A stretch of 64,000 nt of DNA, from assembly GCF_041916015.1 (NCBI RefSeq), contig NZ_JAYSAH010000019.1:353-64352 (forward strand), in the 5' to 3' direction. Made by a program: the position numbers and the translations under genes. Source of the stretch: Sphingopyxis sp. GTDB lineage: Bacteria > Pseudomonadota > Alphaproteobacteria > Sphingomonadales > Sphingomonadaceae. The notes beneath the pieces were generated by a model. It was not told the DNA's origin. It saw only the letters and a program-made list of their open reading frames with translations, and did no database searches. Shown here in pieces: positions 1-43,445 of this stretch (position 1 is the first letter of the stretch; each line of letters starts with the position of its first letter).

Positions 1-2
1 AG

Positions 3-149
3 CGCCGCGCCGACTTGCTGCCGAGGCATGGCTACAGTTTAGTCGTTCTCAATGTGGATGAATTCGCGCACGATAGGGCCAAGCGCCTGCTCAGGACCCA
101 TCAAGATCAGGCCATTGTCAGCCGCCGCCTTGCAAGTTTTATCGGCTGA
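3..149 (+). CDS. 3' end of a CDS truncated by the window edge; hypothetical protein, possibly nuclease-like
   Basis: Open frame from base 3 to TGA at 147-149 (RRADLLPRHGYSLVVLNVDEFAHDRAKRLLRTHQDQAIVSRRLASFIG*), co-oriented with the next gene 28 bp downstream. Product not established. Confidence 0.45.
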   Translation, partial: RRADLLPRHGYSLVVLNVDEFAHDRAKRLLRTHQDQAIVSRRLASFIG

Positions 150-177
150 TTAATGGATATCAAGGCAATGGTGCAAA

Positions 178-954
178 ATGGCTAATGAACCTCGCACCCC
201 ACGGCTTGCTGTCTTGATTGACGCAGATAATGCATCCTCCCGGATCGCACCGCGCCTTTTTGAAGAGATTGCCAAGATCGGTGAGGCAAGTGTTCGCCGC
301 ATTTACGGCGATTTCTCCGGGACTAGGCTTAAATCATGGGCCGACGTTCTCGCCACGCATGCGATCAAGGCGCACCAGAACTTTGCGTACACCAGCGGCA
401 AGAATGCTTCGGATATCGCTTTGGTCATCGACGCGATGGATCTTTTGCATACCGGTCGGTTCGACGGGTTTTGCCTTGTCTCTTCCGACAGTGATTTTAC
501 CGGGCTGGCCTCGCGTATCCGTGAGCAGGGGATCGATGTCTACGGCTTCGGAGAGCAGAAAACTCCCGAGAGCTTCCGGCAAGCCTGTCGCCGTTTCATC
601 TACACCGAGAACCTACTGCCGGAGGCGCAAACGTCAGATGAACTTGGCCGACTGGATACCCGTCCGGCTAGCGTAAAGAAGTCGCCCACTGCTGCCGCAC
701 CCTTGATCCGAACTGCCATCTCACAGCTCGATGATGAAGGGGGCTGGGTGCCTCTAGGGCGGGTGGGCCAACGCCTCGCAGCGCTCGCCTCAGACTTTGA
801 CCCCCGAACTTATGGTGAAAGCAAGCTGAGCGACCTGGTCGAGAAGGCCGGCGGCTTTGACTCACGCAGAACGGAGACCGGGCATTTGCAAATCCGGGTC
901 TCTCCGTCTGGGAAGACGGGCCAACCTAAACCCCAAAAGGCAACAGCCGGATGA
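178..954 (+). CDS. NYN (LabA/DUF88, PIN-like) RNase with C-terminal OST-HTH/LOTUS domain
   Basis: Motifs LIDADN, RRIYGDF, GKNASDIALVID and SSDSDF; C-terminal GWVPLGRVG...FDPRTYGESKLSDLV is typical of OST-HTH. Confidence 0.9.
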   Translation: MANEPRTPRLAVLIDADNASSRIAPRLFEEIAKIGEASVRRIYGDFSGTRLKSWADVLATHAIKAHQNFAYTSGKNASDIALVIDAMDLLHTGRFDGFCLVSSDSDFTGLASRIREQGIDVYGFGEQKTPESFRQACRRFIYTENLLPEAQTSDELGRLDTRPASVKKSPTAAAPLIRTAISQLDDEGGWVPLGRVGQRLAALASDFDPRTYGESKLSDLVEKAGGFDSRRTETGHLQIRVSPSGKTGQPKPQKATAG

Positions 955-1007
955 AAGCCCGGCTGCCTCCTTGCGCTAACCAATACCTTTTCTGACGCCT
1001 TTGGGGC

Positions 1008-1028
1008 ATGCGACCGATAATGTCGTAC
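1008..1028. promoter_or_regulatory. Palindromic operator ATGCGAC-N7-GTCGTAC, DriD/WYL-box-like
   Basis: Perfect CGAC-N7-GTCG core ending 20 bp upstream of ATG 1049; 12/14 match to ATACGAC-N7-GTCGTAT, the Caulobacter DriD consensus as I recall it. Confidence 0.5.
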
Positions 1029-1048
1029 ATGGGTCATATCAAAGCGCG

Positions 1049-2512
1049 ATGAGCAGAAATATTCGAACAAGCACCACTGATCCGATCCAGATCCCTACAC
1101 TTCCGGCCGCATCAGGACGCATCGGCATATCCTTCTGTCCAGGAAAACAAGGGCCTGCGCTCGCTGGCTTTACCTGGAAGCGTGATCTTGCGACCGATCT
1201 AGACGCGGTGCGTGGGTGGGGGGCTGCCGCTGTCGTCTCTCTGATTGAGAAGCACGAGATGGAGCTGCTGGGGGTCGCAGACCTGGAGACTGCGGTTGCT
1301 GCGCGTGGGATGGAATGGTTTCATCTCCCAATCCCCGACGTCACCGCTCCTGGCGAGGAATTCGAGCAACGATGGCACACGGCCGGAGCCCGGCTGCGCA
1401 GTCTACTCACCGACGGGAAAAGCGTCTTTATCCATTGCCGGGGAGGGCTGGGCCGAGCCGGCACAGTGGCGGCGAGACTGCTCATCGAACTTGGCCTTGC
1501 TGACGCTAGTGGTGCAATCGCTCACGTTCGTGGCGTCAGGCCTGGCGCCATTGAGACGAAGGCACAAGAAGATCACTTGCGAGAGATCGAGCGTATCTAT
1601 GATTGCTCATATGGCTGTTTGGTTGGACTGGCGGTCGGAGATGCTGTGGGGGCGACGCTCGAGTTCAAGCCGCGCGACAGCTATGCCCACATCACGGACA
1701 TGGTCGGGGGAGGGCCATTCGGCTTGGATGCCGGGACCTGGACCGATGACACCTCCATGGCCCTTGCGCTGGGAGAAGCTCTGCTCGCCAGCGCGGCCAA
1801 GGGCTCGGCGTTTGAGCCGGGAGAAGCACAACGGCGCTTTGTCGATTGGTGGAGGAACGGCGCCTTCAGTCCCACGGGCAGTTGTTTTGATATCGGGATC
1901 GCAACCCGGCAGGCCCTTTCTCGGTTCGAGGAAACGGGCGACCCGATTGCCGGCTCGACCGATCCGTACTCAGCAGGCAACGGCTCACTAATGAGGCTCG
2001 CGCCAGTCGCGATCTGGGGGATACAGCAAGATCCCGCAGTAGTGACACGAGTAGCCCGCCTACAGAGCATGACCACGCACGCTGCAGATGCGTGCCTCGA
2101 GGCCTGTGAAGCGTATGCACTGGTCTTGCGGGCGGCTATCCTAGGTGCCGACTTTGAGGAAGCACTGGCGGTTCCCTCGGGCGAATATGGACCGGAGGTC
2201 GGTCCAATCATGGCCGGTAGCTGGCGCGGGAAAGCACGCGATCAGATTGCGAGCAGCGGATTCGTCGCGCACAGCCTCGAAGCAGCGATCTGGTCCGTGG
2301 CAAACACGACGAGCTTCGACGACGCAGTGCTGTTGGCAGCCAACCTCGGTGAGGATGCCGACACTACTGCCGCAATTGCCGGGCAGTTGGCTGGCGCAAT
2401 TTACGGCGCATCGTCGATCCGCCGATCATGGCTAGAAAAGCTGGCATGGCGCGACAAAATTGAGAATCTCGCGCGTAATCTGGCGTTCCCGGCAGTCGCG
2501 CTCTCAAACTAA
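1049..2512 (+). CDS. Fusion of a CX5R (CDKN3/dual-specificity-like) phosphatase and an ADP-ribosylglycohydrolase (ARH/DraG family)
   Basis: N-terminal HLPIPD loop and HCRGGLGR P-loop (1433-1456). C-terminal GDAVG, WTDDT (from 1739), GNGSLMR and GEDADTTAAIAG motifs. ATG 1049 preferred over TTG 1001. Confidence 0.9.
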   Translation: MSRNIRTSTTDPIQIPTLPAASGRIGISFCPGKQGPALAGFTWKRDLATDLDAVRGWGAAAVVSLIEKHEMELLGVADLETAVAARGMEWFHLPIPDVTAPGEEFEQRWHTAGARLRSLLTDGKSVFIHCRGGLGRAGTVAARLLIELGLADASGAIAHVRGVRPGAIETKAQEDHLREIERIYDCSYGCLVGLAVGDAVGATLEFKPRDSYAHITDMVGGGPFGLDAGTWTDDTSMALALGEALLASAAKGSAFEPGEAQRRFVDWWRNGAFSPTGSCFDIGIATRQALSRFEETGDPIAGSTDPYSAGNGSLMRLAPVAIWGIQQDPAVVTRVARLQSMTTHAADACLEACEAYALVLRAAILGADFEEALAVPSGEYGPEVGPIMAGSWRGKARDQIASSGFVAHSLEAAIWSVANTTSFDDAVLLAANLGEDADTTAAIAGQLAGAIYGASSIRRSWLEKLAWRDKIENLARNLAFPAVALSN

Positions 2513-2693
2513 CGTCGCGGCCGATACATGGCAGCGATCGGCGGCGTTGCTGTTCGGCCCGCATTGCTGCCCATGGGCACATAATGTGTCATGCTTGATG
2601 CCCTATCGGTGAATTAGCGGATAATGCGTCAGGTTCGACCCTTTACAGAAGGCCCCCGGCGGCGGGATCAGACGGCAGGCTTGGCCCAATTAC

Positions 2694-3818
2694 CTACAAC
2701 GGGATCTTGGTCCCAGAAATACGTGCGGGGTCCAAGCCTGCCTCCTCCGGCTGGAGGAACCGCGGTTTCGATTTGTCTGGATCAAACGAGGCGCCCGTCT
2801 TCCACATTGCCATCATGATCACAGCGAGCTTCCTTGCGACGGCAACGCGAGCCTTGAGAAATCCGATCTTTGTTGCCAGCCGGAGGCCCCAAGTACGCAA
2901 TGAACTTTCGGTTTTGATTGTGCGAAGCAGCACGGTGGCTGCCGTGATTAGGTGCGACCTGGTCAGCTTGTTTCCGTAACGGCTGATCCGGCCGCGGCGC
3001 GCGGTGGCGCCGGATTGATACAGATTGGGCGTTAGGCCGAGATAAGGCCCGACATCTTGATTGCTTCTAAAGCGGTACGGGTCTCCGACGGCGCTGTAAA
3101 ATGACAGCGCTGTAATTGTCCCAACGCCAGGAATCGTCTGAAATCTGGCGCAAACCGGGATGCTGGCGGCCATTGTGCGCATCTTTCGATCCATATCCCA
3201 GATATGAGAGCGCAGTTCTTCTCCCATCCTGACCAGGGGATCCAAATCGACGCGGATCGTCACGCCGTTGGTCCTCAAAAGCCTGAGTTGATTCGCGACT
3301 TCAGCTGCGAGCGATCCTCGCCCATGCAGGAGCTTGATACTGGCACCGTGCAATCTGAATATGGACTGGAGCAGCGCATCCGTCCTGGCTCGATGCTTTA
3401 GCAGGGTTCGACGGATGTTGATCATTATCCGGATGTCCTGGTGCTCCACCGGTTTGATGAAAACATGGGGACCGAAGGACTGCGCCAGTCGGCCAAGCTC
3501 AGCGAGACCTTTGGCATCATTCGCATCAGTCTTTTGACGTCGGATCGCCAGGAATTTGCTTGATTTGCGAACGTCGACGACTTGAACGGGAAACCCGAAT
3601 GAACGGAGATCCCGAACCATTTGAGTGCCGACACCGGCCTCGATCGTAATAGACTGGACAGGCTCAACGCCGAACCGTCGAAGGATATCTCTTATCGGAG
3701 CAGCGCGGGTCTCAGTCATTGCCTCGAAGAAAACGTGTCCTTCGACATCGACGAGGCAGACCGCAGTCTCCAAGTGGCCGGCGTCGAGGCCGACCCAGTA
3801 GCGCAGGTGCCGTGGCAT
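2694..3818 (-). CDS. IS110-family transposase/recombinase (DEDD RuvC-like domain plus Tnp serine domain)
   Basis: GLD12, IE60, KTD98ANDA (D101), TIPGVG, YLGLTPNLYQSG, ARKLAVIM; GGGAG RBS before the ATG. Confidence 0.9.
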   Translation of the reverse strand: MPRHLRYWVGLDAGHLETAVCLVDVEGHVFFEAMTETRAAPIRDILRRFGVEPVQSITIEAGVGTQMVRDLRSFGFPVQVVDVRKSSKFLAIRRQKTDANDAKGLAELGRLAQSFGPHVFIKPVEHQDIRIMINIRRTLLKHRARTDALLQSIFRLHGASIKLLHGRGSLAAEVANQLRLLRTNGVTIRVDLDPLVRMGEELRSHIWDMDRKMRTMAASIPVCARFQTIPGVGTITALSFYSAVGDPYRFRSNQDVGPYLGLTPNLYQSGATARRGRISRYGNKLTRSHLITAATVLLRTIKTESSLRTWGLRLATKIGFLKARVAVARKLAVIMMAMWKTGASFDPDKSKPRFLQPEEAGLDPARISGTKIPL

Positions 3819-3937
3819 TGTGCTCCCGTACGACGTTTGTTTCTTTCGCTTGCCCTACTGACCTTGTCGGGGCTGTCCGACTAGGATTCGTCCTCCGGCA
3901 TGTGATAGTGAGGTAGGAAATCGAAGGAGATGATAGG

Positions 3938-4549
3938 ATGGGGCCGCGGGAGGCGTTGGATGGCCTAATCAGCGAGCGAGGAGAGACCTACGCATCAATT
4001 TCGCGCCTCCTCGGGAGAAACTCGGCATACATCCAGCAGTTCATTAAACGAGGTTCTCCAGTCCGCCTTGACCAAAGCGATATAGCGCTGCTGGCATTGC
4101 ATTTTGACGTGCCCGTAGAGAAGCTCGGTGGAAAGGAGGGGCCGACGGTCGGGCAGCGTTCGATAGTCAAAGTCCCCTTGCTGAACGGGACAGGTAACGA
4201 TTCACGCTCACAATGGCGGCTGGTTGATGCGGCTTGGCTCGGTCGGCTGTGTGATCAGCCCGCCAGTGTCGCAATCTTGCCAATCGTTGGCGAGGCGATG
4301 GAGCCCACCCTCTGCAATGGCGACGAGGTTATGATTAGCCGAGTTCGCTTCCAGGAAAGCGTGCGTGAAGGCCTTTACGCCATCCGTGGGTCTTCTGAAA
4401 TCTTCGTAAGGCGAATAGCGATCGACCCAACGAAGAACCGTCTGACCGTTCTTACTGACCACCCTGCATATCCGAGCTGGCAGGGCATCCCGCGCAAGGG
4501 CGTCGATATTGTCGGCCGGGTGATCTGGATCGGAGCTCGGGTGACCTAG
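3938..4549 (+). CDS. HTH + S24-like (LexA/CI-type) transcriptional regulator with degenerate peptidase active site
   Basis: N-terminal HTH (TYASISRLLGRNSAYIQQFIKRGSP); S24 fold motifs VGEAMEPTL, GDEVMI, GLYAI, FVRRI, IVGRVIW. Confidence 0.8.
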   Translation: MGPREALDGLISERGETYASISRLLGRNSAYIQQFIKRGSPVRLDQSDIALLALHFDVPVEKLGGKEGPTVGQRSIVKVPLLNGTGNDSRSQWRLVDAAWLGRLCDQPASVAILPIVGEAMEPTLCNGDEVMISRVRFQESVREGLYAIRGSSEIFVRRIAIDPTKNRLTVLTDHPAYPSWQGIPRKGVDIVGRVIWIGARVT

Positions 4550-4759
4550 CTGTCATTATGACACCGCGCTGCCTGAGGCTCTAAGCGGCCATCCCAGCGT
4601 GCGATGCTGGTGCGGAGCAAGATGGGTAGCAGTCGCGCTGGCTGGGAGGTGAAACGACGACTCGCACAAGCGCAGTCGGACAAAGCGCAGGCCATGAATC
4701 TTTCACCGTGAACGCTGATGTGCGGAGGCTGAGCAGCCGCAGTGCCGAATTAGCGCGCT

Positions 4760-4780
4760 GCTACCTAGAGAGCTACCTAG
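4760..4780. repeat. Tandem direct repeat GCTACCTAG x2 (4760-4768, 4772-4780), possible integrase arm-type sites
   Basis: Exact 9-bp repeats with a 12-bp period, ~65 bp from the tRNA 3' end. Confidence 0.5.
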
Positions 4781-4845
4781 CACAAAAATGCTCTCAATCG
4801 CCCGATCCGGCGACCTTAGTATCTGATTGAAAAGTAGGGGGAAAA

Positions 4846-4921
<76 letters not shown>

Positions 4922-5033
4922 ACATGCCGGTTTCGGCATTCTTTGCGGGGCGGGGAAACTCCCTGTCTCGCGAAGAGAGCGCGCCGCTATCATGGGGTTG
5001 CGCGCTTGGCAATGCCCTTCGCGAAAATTTTTC

Positions 5034-6140
5034 TCAATGAAAGCGGCGGGTGCCGGTTTTACTGTCGTTTTCGACCGCCAGGATGATACCGACACAGGTC
5101 ATGATCGTCAGCATCGACGAGCCGCCATAGGAAAAGAGCGGCAGCGGGATACCGACCACCGGCGCCATGCCCATCACCATCGACAGGTTGATCGCGATGT
5201 AGAAGAAGATCGTCATCGTGAGGCCGGCCGCAGTGAGCTGACCGAAGCGGGTACGGGCGCGGAGCGCGACGCGCGTGCCCCAGCGGATCAGCAGGAAGAA
5301 GGCGAAGAGCAGGCCGAGCCCGCCGATCAGCCCCCATTCCTCGGCCATCGTTGCGAAGATGAAATCGGTGTGGCCCTCGGGCAGATAGTCGAGGTGGCTC
5401 TGCGACCCGTTGAGGAAGCCTTTGCCGCCGATCCCGCCCGATCCGATCGCGATCTTCGACTGGCTGATATGATAGCCGGCGCCGAGCGGATCGCTTTCGG
5501 GATCGAGGAAGATCAGCACGCGCTTCTGCTGATAGTCGTGGAGCATCGAGAAGAGTACCGGCAACGCCGCGGCGCCCGCGGCGCCGGCGCTGCCGAACCA
5601 CCAGAAGGGCAGGCCGGCGACAAACATCACCACCACGCCGCCGATGCAGATCGCGAGCGCGGTGCCGAGGTCGGGCTGGAGCATGACGAGCGCGGCGGGA
5701 ACGCCGATCGCCGCGAGCGCGGGCCAGAGCGCGGTGAAGGTACGCGTGTTGCCCGGCGGCAGCTGCGCGTAGAAGCGTGCAAGCGCAAGGACGATCGCGA
5801 CCTTCATCAGTTCTGACGGCTGAAGGTTCATGAAACCGAGGTTGAGCCATCGCTGGCTGCCGCCGCCGACGAACCCCAGCAATTCCACCGCGACGAGCAA
5901 CAGCAGCACGCCGAGATAGCCGAGATAGGAGAAGTCCTCGAATATCCGGAGCGGCATGCGGCTGATGCCCAGCATGATGGCGAGGAAGACGAGGAAACGC
6001 ACGCCCTGCTGCCATGCCCAGGGCGACCAGCTGCCGCCCGCCGCCGAATAGAGGACGAGGAGATCGAAGACGACGATCGAGCTCAGCAGCGCGATCAGCT
6101 TCCACGGGATGCGCTGGATGGCGGGCGGAACGGGGATCAT
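5034..6140 (-). CDS. rodA: Rod shape-determining SEDS protein RodA
   Basis: GGSQRWLNLGFMNLQPSELMK, QPDLGTA, SKIAIGSGG, LPEGHTDFIF, PLPLFSYGGSS; ATG 6140 overlaps the mrdA stop (ATGA). Confidence 0.95.
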   Translation of the reverse strand: MIPVPPAIQRIPWKLIALLSSIVVFDLLVLYSAAGGSWSPWAWQQGVRFLVFLAIMLGISRMPLRIFEDFSYLGYLGVLLLLVAVELLGFVGGGSQRWLNLGFMNLQPSELMKVAIVLALARFYAQLPPGNTRTFTALWPALAAIGVPAALVMLQPDLGTALAICIGGVVVMFVAGLPFWWFGSAGAAGAAALPVLFSMLHDYQQKRVLIFLDPESDPLGAGYHISQSKIAIGSGGIGGKGFLNGSQSHLDYLPEGHTDFIFATMAEEWGLIGGLGLLFAFFLLIRWGTRVALRARTRFGQLTAAGLTMTIFFYIAINLSMVMGMAPVVGIPLPLFSYGGSSMLTIMTCVGIILAVENDSKTGTRRFH

Positions 6141-8044
6141 TGCGCGAGCCCCGGATCGGGCGCTGCAATGCCGGCCTTCCACGCGGCATAGCTGCGGTCC
6201 ATGCGATCCTTGATCGTGCCGCCCCAGCCGGCCTCGAAGGTTTCGAGCGCCTCCATCCCCTTTTCGCGATCGTAGATGAAAGTGAAGATGTCCTTCGCGA
6301 CCGGCGCGGCGGCGCGGCTGCCGCCCATGCCGTGCTCGATGATGACCGATATGGCGTAGCGGGGATCGTCGACGGGCGCGAAGCCGATGAACAGGCCGTG
6401 GTCGCGAAATTTCCACGTCCCGCCCTTGCCGTTGCCGGTGTTGAGCCCGCGCACCTGCGCGGTGCCGGTCTTGCCCGCCATCGTAATCCCGTCGAGCGGC
6501 AGGCGGCTGCGCCCGGCGGTCCCTCCCGGCCCGTTGACCACGAGGTCCATGCCCAGCCGCGCGGTGGCGAGCGCCTCGGCGGAGAAGGGGAGGGGATCGT
6601 TCTTGAAGTGCCGGTTGACGAGGCGCGGATAGAGGCTGCGGCCCGAGGCGATGCGCGAGGCCATGACCGCGAGCTGGAGCGGATTCACGCTGACATAGCC
6701 TTGGCCGATCACGGCGTTCAGCGAATCCGACGCCGACCAGGGTTGGTGGTATTTCTTCATCTTCCACGCGCTGTCGGGGATCGTCCCGAACCGCTGGTTG
6801 CTGCCCGCAAGCTGGAATTCCTCGCCGAGCCCCATCAGGCGTGCGGTCGGTGCGATCGCGTCATAGCCCAGCCGGTCGGCAACCCAGTAGAAATAGCTGT
6901 TGCAACTCTTCATGATCGCATGCGGCATGTCGAGGCTGCCGTGCGTGCCGAGGCAGCGGAAGAAACGGTTACCGAGGCGGTAGCCGCCGATGCAGGTGTG
7001 GCGCTCGCTGGGATCGATGCCATGGCCGATCGCGGCGATCGCGGCCATCGGCTTCAGCGTCGATCCCGGCGGATAGAGGCCGCGCGTCGCCTTGTTGATC
7101 AGCGGCTGGTGATCGTCGGCGCGCAGCCAGCTATATTCCGAATTGCTGATCCCGTCCGAAAAGCTGTTCGGGTCGAAGCTCGGCATCGAAACGAAGGCGA
7201 GGATGTCGCCGGTCAGCGTGTCGATGACGATCGCCGCGCCGGATTCGGGGCCCATGCGCCGCGCGGCATATTCCTGCAGGTCGGCATCGATCGTCAGATG
7301 GACGGTCTTACCCTGCGTGTCGGGCTGGGTCGACAGTTCGCGCACCACCTTGCCGCGCGCGGTGACTTCGACGCGCTTGGCGCCGGGCTTGCCACGCAGC
7401 ATGGTCTGGAAATATTTCTCGAGCCCGTCCTTGCCGGTCTTGTAGCCGGGTGTGATGTAAAGCGGGTCCTTGACCTTCTCATATTCCTCGGCGGTCGGTG
7501 CGCCGACATAGCCGATCAGATGGCCGACCGCGGCGCCGGTCGGATAGTTGCGTGCAAAGCCGCGCTGCGGCGCGATGCCGGGAAGCTCGGGGAGGTGGAC
7601 GAGGATCGAGCTATATTCCTGCTCGGTCATGTCCTCGGCGACCGCGACCGGCTGAAAGCCCGATGCGGCTTTCAGGTCGCGCTCGATCCGCTCCATCGCG
7701 TCGCCGTCGAGCCGCAGCAGCGTCTTCAATTGCCCGAGCACCAGATCCTTGTTGTGGAGGCGGTCGGGAATGATGTCGACGCGCAGCGAAACGCGGTTGT
7801 TGGCGAGCGCCTTGCCGTGGCGGTCGACGATCCACCCGCGGCGCGGCGGAACGAGCGTCAGATTGACGCGATTGCTTTCCGACTGAAGCACATAGCGTTC
7901 GTTATCGACGACCGAGATATAGGCCATGCGCGCCGCGAGCGCGCCGAACAACGCTGTCTGCGCGCCGCCGACGACGATCGCGCGGCGGGTGAAGGTGATG
8001 CCCCTCCAGGCTTCGGTAATGGGTGGGCTCTTCTTGCCGAACAT
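6137..8044 (-). CDS. mrdA: Penicillin-binding protein 2
   Basis: PPGSTLK (SxxK), SCN (SxN) and GKTGTAQ (KTG) motifs; located in the mre operon. Confidence 0.95.
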   Translation of the reverse strand: MFGKKSPPITEAWRGITFTRRAIVVGGAQTALFGALAARMAYISVVDNERYVLQSESNRVNLTLVPPRRGWIVDRHGKALANNRVSLRVDIIPDRLHNKDLVLGQLKTLLRLDGDAMERIERDLKAASGFQPVAVAEDMTEQEYSSILVHLPELPGIAPQRGFARNYPTGAAVGHLIGYVGAPTAEEYEKVKDPLYITPGYKTGKDGLEKYFQTMLRGKPGAKRVEVTARGKVVRELSTQPDTQGKTVHLTIDADLQEYAARRMGPESGAAIVIDTLTGDILAFVSMPSFDPNSFSDGISNSEYSWLRADDHQPLINKATRGLYPPGSTLKPMAAIAAIGHGIDPSERHTCIGGYRLGNRFFRCLGTHGSLDMPHAIMKSCNSYFYWVADRLGYDAIAPTARLMGLGEEFQLAGSNQRFGTIPDSAWKMKKYHQPWSASDSLNAVIGQGYVSVNPLQLAVMASRIASGRSLYPRLVNRHFKNDPLPFSAEALATARLGMDLVVNGPGGTAGRSRLPLDGITMAGKTGTAQVRGLNTGNGKGGTWKFRDHGLFIGFAPVDDPRYAISVIIEHGMGGSRAAAPVAKDIFTFIYDREKGMEALETFEAGWGGTIKDRMDRSYAAWKAGIAAPDPGLAQ

Positions 8045-8053
8045 CGAGCGAAT

Positions 8054-8575
8054 TTATCTGCGTTTCAGGCGGAAATTGTCAAACTTCCCCGTCAAGCGAA
8101 GGAAGAGCGGAACGAGGAGGACCGAAACGATGATCTGCGGCGCGACGAGCCCCAGAACACGTCCCGTTGCGGCGTGGGGATGCGTGAGCAGCGCCGCGAG
8201 AGCCTGGATGATCGCGACAAGTAAAGCGCCAATCGCCCAGTCGTGAAAAAAACCGCGCCAATAGATGCGCTGCGAGAGATAGGCGATCGCGATGCTGGCG
8301 GCGGTCCACAGGAAGACCGCGGTGCCGATCGGCGCACCGCTGAACAGATCGTCCCACAGGCCGAGCGGCAGGCCGATCCACACCGGCCACATCTCGGTCC
8401 TGAGCAGTTGCCACGACAGGAAGAAGAGCAAGCCGAGCGGCGGCAGCACCGGCGAGCTTGCGACGAGCGGCAGCATCAGCGGCAGCGCCGAGGCGACCAT
8501 CACGCTCGCGATCGGCACGACAAGCATCCGCCAGCGCGAGGCCGGCTCGCCGAGGCGGGGTCCCTTCGGGGTCAT
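8054..8575 (-). CDS. mreD: Rod shape-determining protein MreD
   Basis: Hydrophobic 173-aa protein with GLWDDLFSGAPIG, between mreC and mrdA. Confidence 0.85.
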   Translation of the reverse strand: MTPKGPRLGEPASRWRMLVVPIASVMVASALPLMLPLVASSPVLPPLGLLFFLSWQLLRTEMWPVWIGLPLGLWDDLFSGAPIGTAVFLWTAASIAIAYLSQRIYWRGFFHDWAIGALLVAIIQALAALLTHPHAATGRVLGLVAPQIIVSVLLVPLFLRLTGKFDNFRLKRR

Positions 8576-9480
8576 GGCGCCTTCGGGACTTCGGGGATGG
8601 CGCCCGGCGCAGGCTTCAGCAACTGCGCTTCGGCGTCTTCCGGTGTATAAGGACGCAGCACCGACACCGCATCGACCTTTGCCGGGTCGGCGAGCGGGCG
8701 GGCGAGCGCGCCGTCATTCTGGCGGCGCACGACGATCGCGACCGGGATGTTGGGCGGATAGAGGCCGCCTGTACCTGAGGTGACGAGGATGTCGCCGGGC
8801 TTGAACGGATTGTTCGCGATATTGAGCGTGCGGACGTCGAGGTCGCCGTTGCCGCGGCCATAGGCAAGCGCGGGCAGGCCATCGCGCGCGCGGCGGACGG
8901 GGACGATCGTGTCGATGTCGGTGATCAGCAATACCTGCGACACCGATGGTCCCGACCCCAGCACGCGTCCGATCAGCCCGTCGGCACCGCGCACCGGCTG
9001 TCCGGCCGCGACGCCGAGATTGCGGCCGATGCTGAGCAGAGCGATGCGCTTGCTGCTCGTCGAGGTCGAGGTGAGGAGATAGCCGTTGGCGATCGCGCTC
9101 TTGTCGGTTTCCTGCAGCTTGAGCAGCGCCTTCAACTGGCGATTCTCTTCCTGCAGCGAGCTGGTCGCGACGAGCTGCCGCCGCGTCTCGGCGAGCTCCT
9201 TGCGCAGCCGCCGGTTCTGCGACCCCGCGCCGACATAGGCCGACACGGCATCGTCGATGCCGGAGATCGAGCCGATCACCGACCGGGTGGCGCGCGCTAC
9301 CGGCGCCGTCACCTCCTGGCTGGCGAGGCGAAGCTGGGCGAATCCGACGGGGTCAGCGACCGACAGGATCGCCAGCAGCAAGCCCGCCACCGCCCCGGTC
9401 ACCGCAATGACATAGGCAGCGAACAGGCTGTACTGAGCCTTTCGGGATTGCCCCGGACGCCGATGTGCCGGGCGGACCAT
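8572..9480 (-). CDS. mreC: Rod shape-determining protein MreC
   Basis: N-terminal TM, coiled coil (EENRQLKALL), GLIGRV, GDILVTSGTGGLYPPNIPVA. Confidence 0.92.
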   Translation of the reverse strand: MVRPAHRRPGQSRKAQYSLFAAYVIAVTGAVAGLLLAILSVADPVGFAQLRLASQEVTAPVARATRSVIGSISGIDDAVSAYVGAGSQNRRLRKELAETRRQLVATSSLQEENRQLKALLKLQETDKSAIANGYLLTSTSTSSKRIALLSIGRNLGVAAGQPVRGADGLIGRVLGSGPSVSQVLLITDIDTIVPVRRARDGLPALAYGRGNGDLDVRTLNIANNPFKPGDILVTSGTGGLYPPNIPVAIVVRRQNDGALARPLADPAKVDAVSVLRPYTPEDAEAQLLKPAPGAIPEVPKAP

Positions 9481-42101: not shown

Positions 42102-42170
42102 GATGGCCCTTTATCGGCTTCCAGCTTCAGGGTGTGCGGCGATCCGGCGTTCCGGAGTGCCGCGGTGCCC

Positions 42171-43445
42171 TTATTTTGCGCCCTTTTTCGCGACCAGCGT
42201 CCCAAGACCGCCGAGCTTGCCGAGCAGCGAGCCGCCGTTCGGTTTCGCCTTTGCGACGGCTGCGTCCTCGGCGCTTTCGTCGGCGCCATCGACGATGGTC
42301 CGCATCAGGCTCGTCCACGGCTGCGACGCCTTGGTTCCCTTGCACAGTTCGGCATAGGATTTGCCGAGTTTCGCGGCCTGGCTGACCAGTTTGGGATCGA
42401 ACGGAATGACGATGTCGATCGGACGCTCGATCGACGATTCGAAGTCCTTGCGTGAAAGTTCGCCGATCGCGGTCTGAAACTTGTTCGCAACAAGAACCAC
42501 GCGCGCGCCCGGAACATTCTGCTTGAACCAGGACAGCAGACGGATCGTGTCGCGCGCGCCCGCCAGGGTTACATCGCTGACGAGCAGGATCGTGCCGGCT
42601 TCCTGCACCAGGTGCGGGAAAGGGATCAGGACATGGCGCGGGATGTCGACAATCGTCATCTCGAAGGCATTGCGCAGTTCCTCTTCCAGCTGGAAGAAGG
42701 CCGAACCATCGGTCATCACCGGCTGATGGATCGGCGCTTCGGCCGACAGCAGGCTGAGCTTGTCCGATGCGCGGACCATCGCGCGCTCGATGAACAGGCC
42801 ATCGATGCGGCTGGGATTGTCGATCGCGTCGATCAGGCCGCGCCCCGGCTCGAGGTCGAGCGTGAGCGCGCCGGTCCCGAAATGCACGTCGAGATCGAGC
42901 AGCGCGGTCTGGCGATCGCCCTGTTCGCTCATCACCCACGCCAGCGAGGTCGATACGAGCGACGCGCCGACACCGCCGCGCACGCCGACGACCGCCATCA
43001 TGTGATGCGGCTTGTCGTCGTGGATGTCGGCATGCTTCGGCGCCGACAGCATGGCCTGCGCCATGGTGAAGCTTTCGCGGACCTGGTCGAGCGACAGCGG
43101 CTTCAGCAGATAATCCTGGATGCCGCTCGACAGAAGGTCGCGGTACAGACGCACGTCGTTCACCTGACCCGCCGCGATCACCACGGTGCCGGGCTCGCAG
43201 ACTTCGGCCAGTGCGTTGATGTCGTTGATCGGATCTCCCGATTCCGACATGTCGACGAACAGGATGTTCGGGCTCGCCGACACCGAGAGCGACTGGACGG
43301 CGTTGCGAAGGCCGCCCTTGTTGCACTTCTCGATCGGCCAGCCCATGTCGGCCGATGCGACGCGGATCAGCTCCAGCGTGTCGTCGTCACAGACGAAGGC
43401 ATTGAAGGGATCACGCAGCCCGGCTGCTTTGAAAGGAGCGTTCAC
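42171..43445 (-). CDS. cpaE: Pilus assembly ATPase-like protein CpaE/TadZ
   Basis: Receiver-like N-terminus, GVRGGVGAS, LLDLDVHFG; GTG 43445 overlaps the cpaD stop. Confidence 0.9.
   Translation of the reverse strand: MNAPFKAAGLRDPFNAFVCDDDTLELIRVASADMGWPIEKCNKGGLRNAVQSLSVSASPNILFVDMSESGDPINDINALAEVCEPGTVVIAAGQVNDVRLYRDLLSSGIQDYLLKPLSLDQVRESFTMAQAMLSAPKHADIHDDKPHHMMAVVGVRGGVGASLVSTSLAWVMSEQGDRQTALLDLDVHFGTGALTLDLEPGRGLIDAIDNPSRIDGLFIERAMVRASDKLSLLSAEAPIHQPVMTDGSAFFQLEEELRNAFEMTIVDIPRHVLIPFPHLVQEAGTILLVSDVTLAGARDTIRLLSWFKQNVPGARVVLVANKFQTAIGELSRKDFESSIERPIDIVIPFDPKLVSQAAKLGKSYAELCKGTKASQPWTSLMRTIVDGADESAEDAAVAKAKPNGGSLLGKLGGLGTLVAKKGAK

Follow-up and report, generated by a model that had tools for sequence, protein, structure and literature searches.

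The locus analyzed here raises the question of what controls the gene for PTP-ARH, a fusion of a phosphatase and an ADP-ribosylglycohydrolase, and in particular what role is played by the DriD-type palindrome directly upstream of its start codon. The window, which is the whole 64,000-nucleotide stretch of DNA that was analyzed, has the gene and the palindrome close to one end. We consider it likely that the palindrome is the activator operator of an island-encoded DriD-family wHTH-WYL-WCX regulator and that it serves a leaderless promoter of PTP-ARH.

The features of the window around the promoter are:

178-954, plus strand: NYN ribonuclease-like gene with an OST-HTH/LOTUS domain; upstream cargo, a separate unit
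992-1021, plus strand: sigma-70-like match CTGACG-18-GATAAT; 9 of 12 matches, with its -10 in the box spacer
1008-1028, plus strand: 21-bp DriD-type box, made up of ATGCGAC, CGATAAT and GTCGTAC; -41 to -21 relative to the predicted +1
1037-1042, plus strand: predicted -10 element TATCAA; only TA at 1037-1038 (-12/-11) is invariant among orthologous promoters
1049, plus strand: predicted transcription start, the A of the ATG, of a putative leaderless mRNA
1049-2512, plus strand: PTP-ARH, a 487-aa phosphatase and ADP-ribosylglycohydrolase fusion; Pfam PTP-SAK (1.6e-11) and ADP_ribosyl_GH (4.6e-68)

The box in the PTP-ARH spacer and its conservation

The letters at 1008-1028 of the window are ATGCGACCGATAATGTCGTAC. 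Direct reading places the half-site cores at 1011-1014 (CGAC) and 1022-1025 (GTCG), and the box spacer CGATAAT at 1015-1021, with five of its seven bases A or T. The box lies in the 94-bp intergenic spacer between the end of the NYN/OST-HTH open reading frame at 954 and the PTP-ARH ATG at 1049, and 20 nt separate the end of the box from that ATG. These readings confirm what the initial annotation had reported, namely, a palindrome at 1008-1028 located 20 bp before the ATG in a 94-bp spacer. That annotation had also compared the site with the DriD consensus and had counted differences at 2 of 14 positions. The consensus is printed in the same form, ATACGAC(X)7GTCGTAT (PMC10853764), and the count was correct, with 12 of 14 positions equal and identity at all eight core positions. 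The conserved features of DriD sites are a CGxC(X)7GxCG core and an AT-rich spacer (PMC10853764).

One site with no more than two mismatches to the consensus was found in the 64-kb window, versus 0.07 expected. The window alone is suggestive only, because hits with two or fewer mismatches were present (at least one) in 6 of 100 shuffles. When up to three mismatches are allowed, the expectation rises to 1.04 per 64-kb window. The bare core CGAC-N7-GTCG occurs eight times in the window versus 4.2 expected, and among these eight copies only the one at 1008-1028 is intergenic with an AT-rich spacer. A PWM built from 15 distinct boxes of the analyzed islands scored the box at 33.2 bits, and the next best site in the 64-kb window scored 14.3 bits.

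A second box-like sequence, TTGCGACCGATCTAGACGCGG, is located at 1188-1208 within the PTP-ARH coding region. It reaches fewer than 12 bits with the PWM and is common to very close relatives only; it was therefore rejected as a second box and is probably a chance occurrence. A LexA (SOS) box was also considered as the control element of the PTP-ARH spacer and was discarded. No match to the alphaproteobacterial type of LexA box, GTTC-N7-GTTC, was found at 955-1048 with up to one mismatch, and in the whole window the number of matches to this type of box (43 versus 45.9 expected) was at the level of chance.

Loci for comparison came from looking up homologues by exact protein, from a scan of species-representative genomes, and from a scan of metagenomes. 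The orthologue set comprised 23 loci in which PTP-ARH is 72-93% identical to the window protein. A CGxC-N7-GxCG box ends exactly 20 nt before the ATG in all 23 of these loci (at least 72% identity), which represent at least 11 unrelated upstream contexts. For example, the gene that precedes PTP-ARH varies by locus and may be an NYN gene, a 197-aa gene, ZacC, a 331-aa gene, T5orf172, or a 246-aa gene. Eleven promoters were taken as independent in that their -100 to -42 regions are less than 60% alike. The mean pairwise identity of these 11 promoters is 0.26 in the flank, 0.76 in the box, 0.40 from -20 to -1, and 0.71 in the first 30 coding bases. Their invariant box pattern is ..GCGaCC..T..TGtCG.A., and from the box to the ATG nothing else is invariant except a TA at positions 9 and 10 after the box, which is present in 11 of 11. 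Core changes among the orthologues are at third positions (CGGC, GACG, GCCG), which vary among DriD sites too (PMC10853764); the sole other core change is in the first base of the left core at one locus (TGGC, in L097).

More distant fusions differ in this respect. In species-representative genomes, no box was found within 250 bp of the fusion at 21 of 21 loci with 56% identity or less, and the box is also absent before the fusions of L109 (53%), L122 (58%), and L127 (61%). At a further locus (L123, 56%) there is no box upstream of the fusion, yet boxes precede other genes there. The absence of the box at identities of 61% or less indicates that the wiring is specific to one island-borne clade and does not extend to the whole fusion family. 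The initial annotation had named a missing motif upstream of orthologues as grounds for refutation; with the motif present at every orthologue of at least 72% identity, its proposal is not refuted.

It might be argued that the palindrome arose by chance, or that it has a structural or recombinational function, for instance as the boundary of a cassette or as a hairpin, and does not affect transcription. The frequency of comparable sites in shuffles of a single window would agree with the former, and the location of boxes at the borders of variable cargo cassettes would agree with the latter. However, the position of the box is kept at every orthologous locus across unrelated flanks, the spacing between box and start codon is constant from gene to gene, and island boxes have the bases C8, T11, T14, and A20 in common with activating Caulobacter sites. 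The box is far beyond chance because of these comparative data across orthologous loci, and an explanation without a role in transcription is extremely improbable.

Promoter geometry and activation versus repression

When the invariant TA is taken as -12/-11 of a -10 hexamer, position 21 after the box, the A of the ATG, becomes +1. Transcription would therefore start on A1049. A leaderless start is predicted because the distance between the box and the ATG is fixed at 20 nt, because of the position of the -10 element, and because no consistent Shine-Dalgarno sequence precedes the ATG across the orthologous promoters. Direct reading of the window at -35 to -30 gives CCGATA, which matches TTGACA at two of six positions. 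Judged by sequence, the box takes up the -35 position, where no -35 hexamer is present, and its spacing to the TA is constant.

A 2026 cryo-EM study of DriD-RNAP-promoter complexes reported one fixed spacing between DriD sites and the -10 element, with the sites overlapping the -35 position, and an absence of -35 hexamers from DriD-regulated promoters (PMC13004042). In the same study DriD was assigned to a "type IV" class of activator that is bound on both sides of the -35 position (PMC13004042). When applied to the three promoter oligonucleotides of the cryo-EM study (sequences from PMC13004042), the PWM of island boxes picked out the known DriD site in each, oriented for activation. Each of these three C. 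crescentus promoter oligonucleotides has cAA at positions 9-11 after the site; the Caulobacter -10 position is our own reading of the published oligonucleotide sequences (PMC13004042). The four bases that are common to island boxes and activating Caulobacter sites (C8, T11, T14, and A20) are specific to orientation. As far as can be read from the DNA, the geometry of the box matches the activation layout that cryo-EM defined for DriD, and it predicts a leaderless mRNA.

These features suggest a mechanism in which the island WYL protein would bind to the box and would activate rather than repress. By analogy with C. crescentus DriD, a ligand-bound dimer on the box, which is centered at -31 in place of the absent -35 hexamer, would be positioned opposite sigma region 4. 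The dimer would recruit RNA polymerase to an otherwise weak promoter, with a minimal TAnnnn -10 element 8 nt downstream of the box and the A of the ATG at +1. The ligand would probably be ssDNA that results from DNA damage or from the replication or processing of foreign DNA, and transcription would yield a leaderless mRNA that encodes the phosphatase-ADP-ribosylhydrolase.

For window positions 600-2800, biofilm metatranscriptomes X25-X28 contain low-depth, fragmentary contigs of NYN/PTP-ARH variants that are 90-99% identical, so that these RNA libraries include either the genes or contaminating DNA. One metatranscriptome contig spans the promoter (944-1098) and is therefore attributed to read-through or DNA contamination, so that a 5' end is unreadable there.

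Another possibility is that the box is a repressor operator, at which the WYL protein blocks an overlapping sigma-70 promoter until ssDNA or another signal releases it, as with BrxR and CapW. The transcript would then start near 1028 and would have a 20-nt leader. The sigma-70-like match at 992-1021 could be such a promoter, since a match of this quality is expected only 0.1 times and the -10 hexamer (GATAAT) is located in the spacer of the box variant found in the window. Repression would also be in accordance with the finding that the characterized WYL regulators of defense islands, BrxR and CapW, are repressors (PMC9122601, PMC11662680), with the defense-type cargo of the island, which includes ZacABC and GmrSD, and with the suggestion of negative autoregulation for a start-codon-proximal box in the 2022 DriD paper. 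However, the -35 half of the sigma-70-like match is in the flanking DNA that is unrelated across islands, and A2 and T6 of the spacer hexamer are kept in some variants only, and not in ACTAAT, GCTAAT, or ATTTTT. The 20-nt leader would be without a consistent Shine-Dalgarno sequence, and a repressor would leave unexplained both the invariant TA at +9/+10 from the box and the fixed 20 nt to the ATG. Furthermore, the start-proximal DriD box in Caulobacter, which is located between driD and CCNA_03891, activates the divergent operon and not driD (PMC13004042). The family of the regulator, described below, is DriD-like and is not matched by BrxR or CapW at E values of 1 or less. Based on these considerations, repression from the box is unlikely. 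A BrxR/CapW repressor operator in the strict sense was rejected as a candidate, as the regulator is DriD-like and the site is 9.3 kb from the regulator gene, before another gene.

The probable regulator and other boxes of the island

A tblastn search found no WYL protein within the 64-kb window. Looking up the fusion by exact protein gave three contigs, one of which is L001 (GCA_918741285.1). L001 and a second contig, L002, are 99.7% identical to positions 1-4549 of the window and reach 9 kb further upstream; their right-hand flanks differ from that of the window. Both have a gene for a 330-aa wHTH-WYL-WCX protein 9.3 kb upstream of the box. From these near-identical contigs we infer that the WYL gene is probably present in the source genome as well. 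A WYL gene is within reach at 5 of the approximately 18 orthologous loci that have 10 kb of upstream DNA, and 5 more of these loci end inside the adjacent AddA/AddB-like genes.

The island WYL protein aligns over its full length (residues 8-321) with the DriD structures 8tp8 and 9pfq (E value of 1.5e-51). A profile of 24 members of this WYL family matched DriD with an E value of 6e-79 and PafBC with one of about 1e-6, and the search with this profile returned no match to BrxR or CapW at E values of 1 or less. On this evidence the 330-aa protein is a full-length DriD homologue, and because it is only about 38% identical to DriD, it is regarded as a paralogue. Residues R38, R39, T40, E42, R43, and R45 are invariant across the 24 family members and align with R36, R37, T38, E40, R41, and R43 of DriD, whose base-reading residues include Arg37 and Arg41 (PMC10853764). 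Conservation is less complete among the seven residues with which DriD contacts ssDNA. Y168, R178, and Y192 are kept in the island family (3/7 invariant), whereas S172, K202, and R204 are not kept, and W206 is replaced by F. The ssDNA pocket is thus conserved in part only, and therefore the ligand could differ. ssDNA may be the signal for the island regulator, but this is uncertain.

It is also conceivable that the host chromosomal DriD reads the box instead of, or in addition to, the island paralogue, in which case PTP-ARH would belong to an SOS-independent damage regulon. In favor of this reading, the match of the box to the Caulobacter consensus is nearly as good as its match to the island consensus. 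In addition, DriD homologues accompanied by boxes have been reported throughout the alphaproteobacteria (68 of 69; PMC10853764), and several orthologous loci are without a WYL gene within 10 kb. However, the 64-kb window has no other strong box, not even before mutL or other core genes, and boxes cluster in islands beside the island-encoded regulator. Control by the host protein is therefore quite improbable. The initial annotation had named both an island WYL protein and the host DriD orthologue as candidates. The island option is favored by the DriD homologue and the additional boxes in L001 and L002, although the regulator gene itself is outside the window.

L001 has three boxes that share TGCGAC-N7(AT-rich)-GTCGTA, versus 0.00 expected in shuffles:

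L001 box 1: between the AAA-ATPase and WYL genes
L001 box 2: across the WYL stop codon; the AddB-like gene follows 57 nt later
L001 box 3: upstream of PTP-ARH, the site studied here

Boxes located 20 or 21 nt from an ATG were also found before a 215-aa gene (L004, L088, L089, L096, L100, L102, and L103), before a 246-aa gene (L096 and L100), and before the AAA ATPase gene (L001, L123, and L124). Since this cassette also precedes other island genes, PTP-ARH is probably one of several targets of a DriD-type regulon that extends over the island. Notable aspects of this regulon are its mobile context, its defense-type and ADP-ribose-related targets, and the predicted leaderless architecture of its cassettes.

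The WYL-adjacent box faces the divergent AAA-ATPase gene (L001, 593-613 and 571, minus strand; L123, 4015-4057; L124, 9867-9846, minus strand). It is 20-21 nt from an in-frame ATG, which in L001 and L124 is upstream of the called AAA-ATPase start. The AAA ATPase resembles the anti-phage ATPase IteA, with a score below the threshold.

The closest known system is the DriD regulon of Caulobacter crescentus, which includes the promoters of didA, bapE, CCNA_03891/01149, recA, recJ, and dnaG. The two systems share a protein family over its full length, the same base-reading residues, CGxC-N7-GxCG boxes with AT-rich spacers, and sites placed over -35 with a constant spacing to a weak -10 element, in promoters that have no -35 hexamer. 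In addition, the regulator-proximal box appears to drive a divergent gene in both cases, the AAA ATPase here and CCNA_03891 in Caulobacter. In contrast to DriD, the island regulator is encoded within a low-GC island, whose boundary in the window is a tRNA-Lys gene, and 3 or 4 of its 7 ssDNA-contact residues differ. Its targets are island cargo (PTP-ARH, an AddAB-like helicase-nuclease, the AAA ATPase, and small proteins) rather than the core repair and division genes controlled by DriD, and the island promoters, unlike those of DriD, are predicted to be leaderless with +1 on the ATG.

BrxR and CapW resemble the island system in their wHTH-WYL-WCX domain order, their location in defense islands, and their palindromic operators, and CapW senses ssDNA. 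However, they are repressors mainly of their own operons, whereas the box sequence and the -10 geometry at the island promoters are DriD-like. PafBC of mycobacteria is likewise a WYL activator of a LexA-independent damage regulon that is triggered by ssDNA and acts at promoters without a functional -35. PafBC differs in that it is a heterodimer, recognizes the RecA-NDp motif, which is not palindromic, and binds DNA only with the help of RNAP, and its similarity to the island family is distant (E value of 1e-6, in the WYL-WCX region only).

PTP-ARH, its island, and the meaning of the proposed DriD-type control

The phosphatase part of PTP-ARH is of the DSP/PTP type (approximately residues 43-182; Pfam PTP-SAK, Tc-R-P, and DSPc), with an HCxGGLGR P-loop at residues 129-136. 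The ADP-ribosylglycohydrolase part comprises residues 189-458. Alignment A1 shows no variation in the catalytic motifs HCxGGLGR, DDT, and DxD. The C-terminal ARH fold, with its invariant metal-binding Asp/Thr motifs, resembles Tri1 and DraG. The best NCBIfam match is the Tri1 ADP-ribosylarginine hydrolase, but the score of 331 bits is below the 490-bit equivalog cut-off, and PTP-ARH further differs from Tri1 and DraG in its fusion to a PTP-SAK-type DSP/PTP phosphatase. PADLOC returned no match for PTP-ARH, the NYN protein, the 218-aa protein, or the AddB-like protein, and therefore PTP-ARH is not called a defense gene.

One distant relative has a different setting. In L127 (6687-11437) a 61%-identical PTP-ARH is the last gene of an operon of NrtR, NadM/Nudix, and NAMPT genes with start/stop overlap, on a contig that also has a MobA/MobL relaxase gene. 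This operon connects the fusion family with the salvage or reconstitution of NAD, and not with control by DriD. Because distant orthologues are found in an NrtR-NadM/Nudix-NAMPT operon, the substrate of PTP-ARH may be a nucleotide and not a protein.

To the right of PTP-ARH the island continues as follows:

2694-3818, minus strand: IS110-family (DEDD) transposase-like gene; syntenic with PTP-ARH in most islands
3938-4549, plus strand: S24-peptidase (LexA/CI-like) gene; syntenic with the IS110-like gene
4846-4921, minus strand: tRNA-Lys(CTT); right-hand boundary of the low-GC island

Across islands, identities are 68-100% for the IS110-like protein (tblastn) and 64-100% for the S24 peptidase, and both fall in step with PTP-ARH. 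Therefore, these two genes look like a conserved module and not like a random IS insertion; possibly, they provide integration/excision and a repressor. Homology with the L001 island stops at 4890, within the 3' part of the tRNA-Lys gene, as expected for the att site of a tRNA-integrated element. The GC content from position 1 to approximately 4890 is 57-61%, versus 65-72%. A megablast search of window positions 1-4600 against the PLSDB plasmids returned no match, which ruled out a catalogued plasmid as the carrier of the island.

The gene order in L001 is AAA ATPase (divergent), 330-aa WYL+WCX protein, 904-aa PDDEXK_1 (AddB-like) protein, UvrD-type helicase, helicase C-terminal fragment, 218-aa protein, NYN/OST-HTH, PTP-ARH, IS110-like, and S24 peptidase. 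Other islands have ZacABC, a PADLOC candidate defense system, between the AddAB-like genes and PTP-ARH (ZacA, 3e-69; ZacB, 1.5e-98; ZacC, 3e-203), and elsewhere GmrSD, type III R-M, and OLD-family genes adjoin the regulator. At L086, for example, ZacABC cargo is located at 3180-9270, between an AddA-like gene and PTP-ARH. In L001 (4433-8318), genes for a 755-aa UvrD-type protein and a 551-aa "Helicase_C" protein together resemble the N-terminal part of AddA fused with the C-terminal part of ZacC, and the pair would be a deletion derivative. Extra transposase genes at 13501-17111 of L001 are absent from the window.

Two further observations concern the window. A hairpin with a 7-bp stem (CAGCCGG...CCGGCTG, 944-950/959-965) encloses the NYN/OST-HTH stop codon. 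The hairpin at 944-965 was left unscored by the terminator scan because it has no T-run, and it could mark the end of the upstream transcription unit. At 42127-43326 (minus strand), a 399-aa open reading frame beside two T2SSF (tad/pilus-type) genes has a GC3 of 0.43, versus 0.6-0.9, and may be in the wrong frame or foreign DNA.

A broader proposal, which we offer tentatively and with clear reservations, is that a DriD-family activator is the master switch of a mobile Sphingomonadales defense island and acts via cassettes of a box, a minimal -10 element, and a leaderless ATG that are turned on by ssDNA. If so, the box-controlled AddAB-like helicase-nuclease may itself produce the activating ssDNA, and the modular promoter cassette would travel with its cargo genes, making ZacABC-linked operons, the AAA ATPase, small proteins, and PTP-ARH interchangeable. 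The cassettes would give fast expression of defense or self-protection functions that is independent of a ribosome-binding site, and PTP-ARH would reverse ADP-ribosylation or recycle NAD-derived products after the response. This would also be the first WYL control of a defense island that is of the activator rather than the repressor type.

To our knowledge, DriD has so far been a single-organism (Caulobacter) paradigm for SOS-independent, ssDNA-triggered activation of transcription. The DriD operator, reading head, and promoter geometry recur on mobile sphingomonad islands, before genes that are not classical repair genes, namely, the ADP-ribosylhydrolase-phosphatase fusion, AddAB-like genes, and cargo located beside defense systems. 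The recurrence suggests that WYL control of defense islands is not always repression, and it predicts a compact, portable, activator-dependent leaderless promoter. For the PTP-ARH enzyme family, the DriD-type box provides a testable physiological cue. Even if the island system proves to be an ordinary paralogous regulon, it would offer more than 20 natural operator variants for the study of DriD-family specificity.
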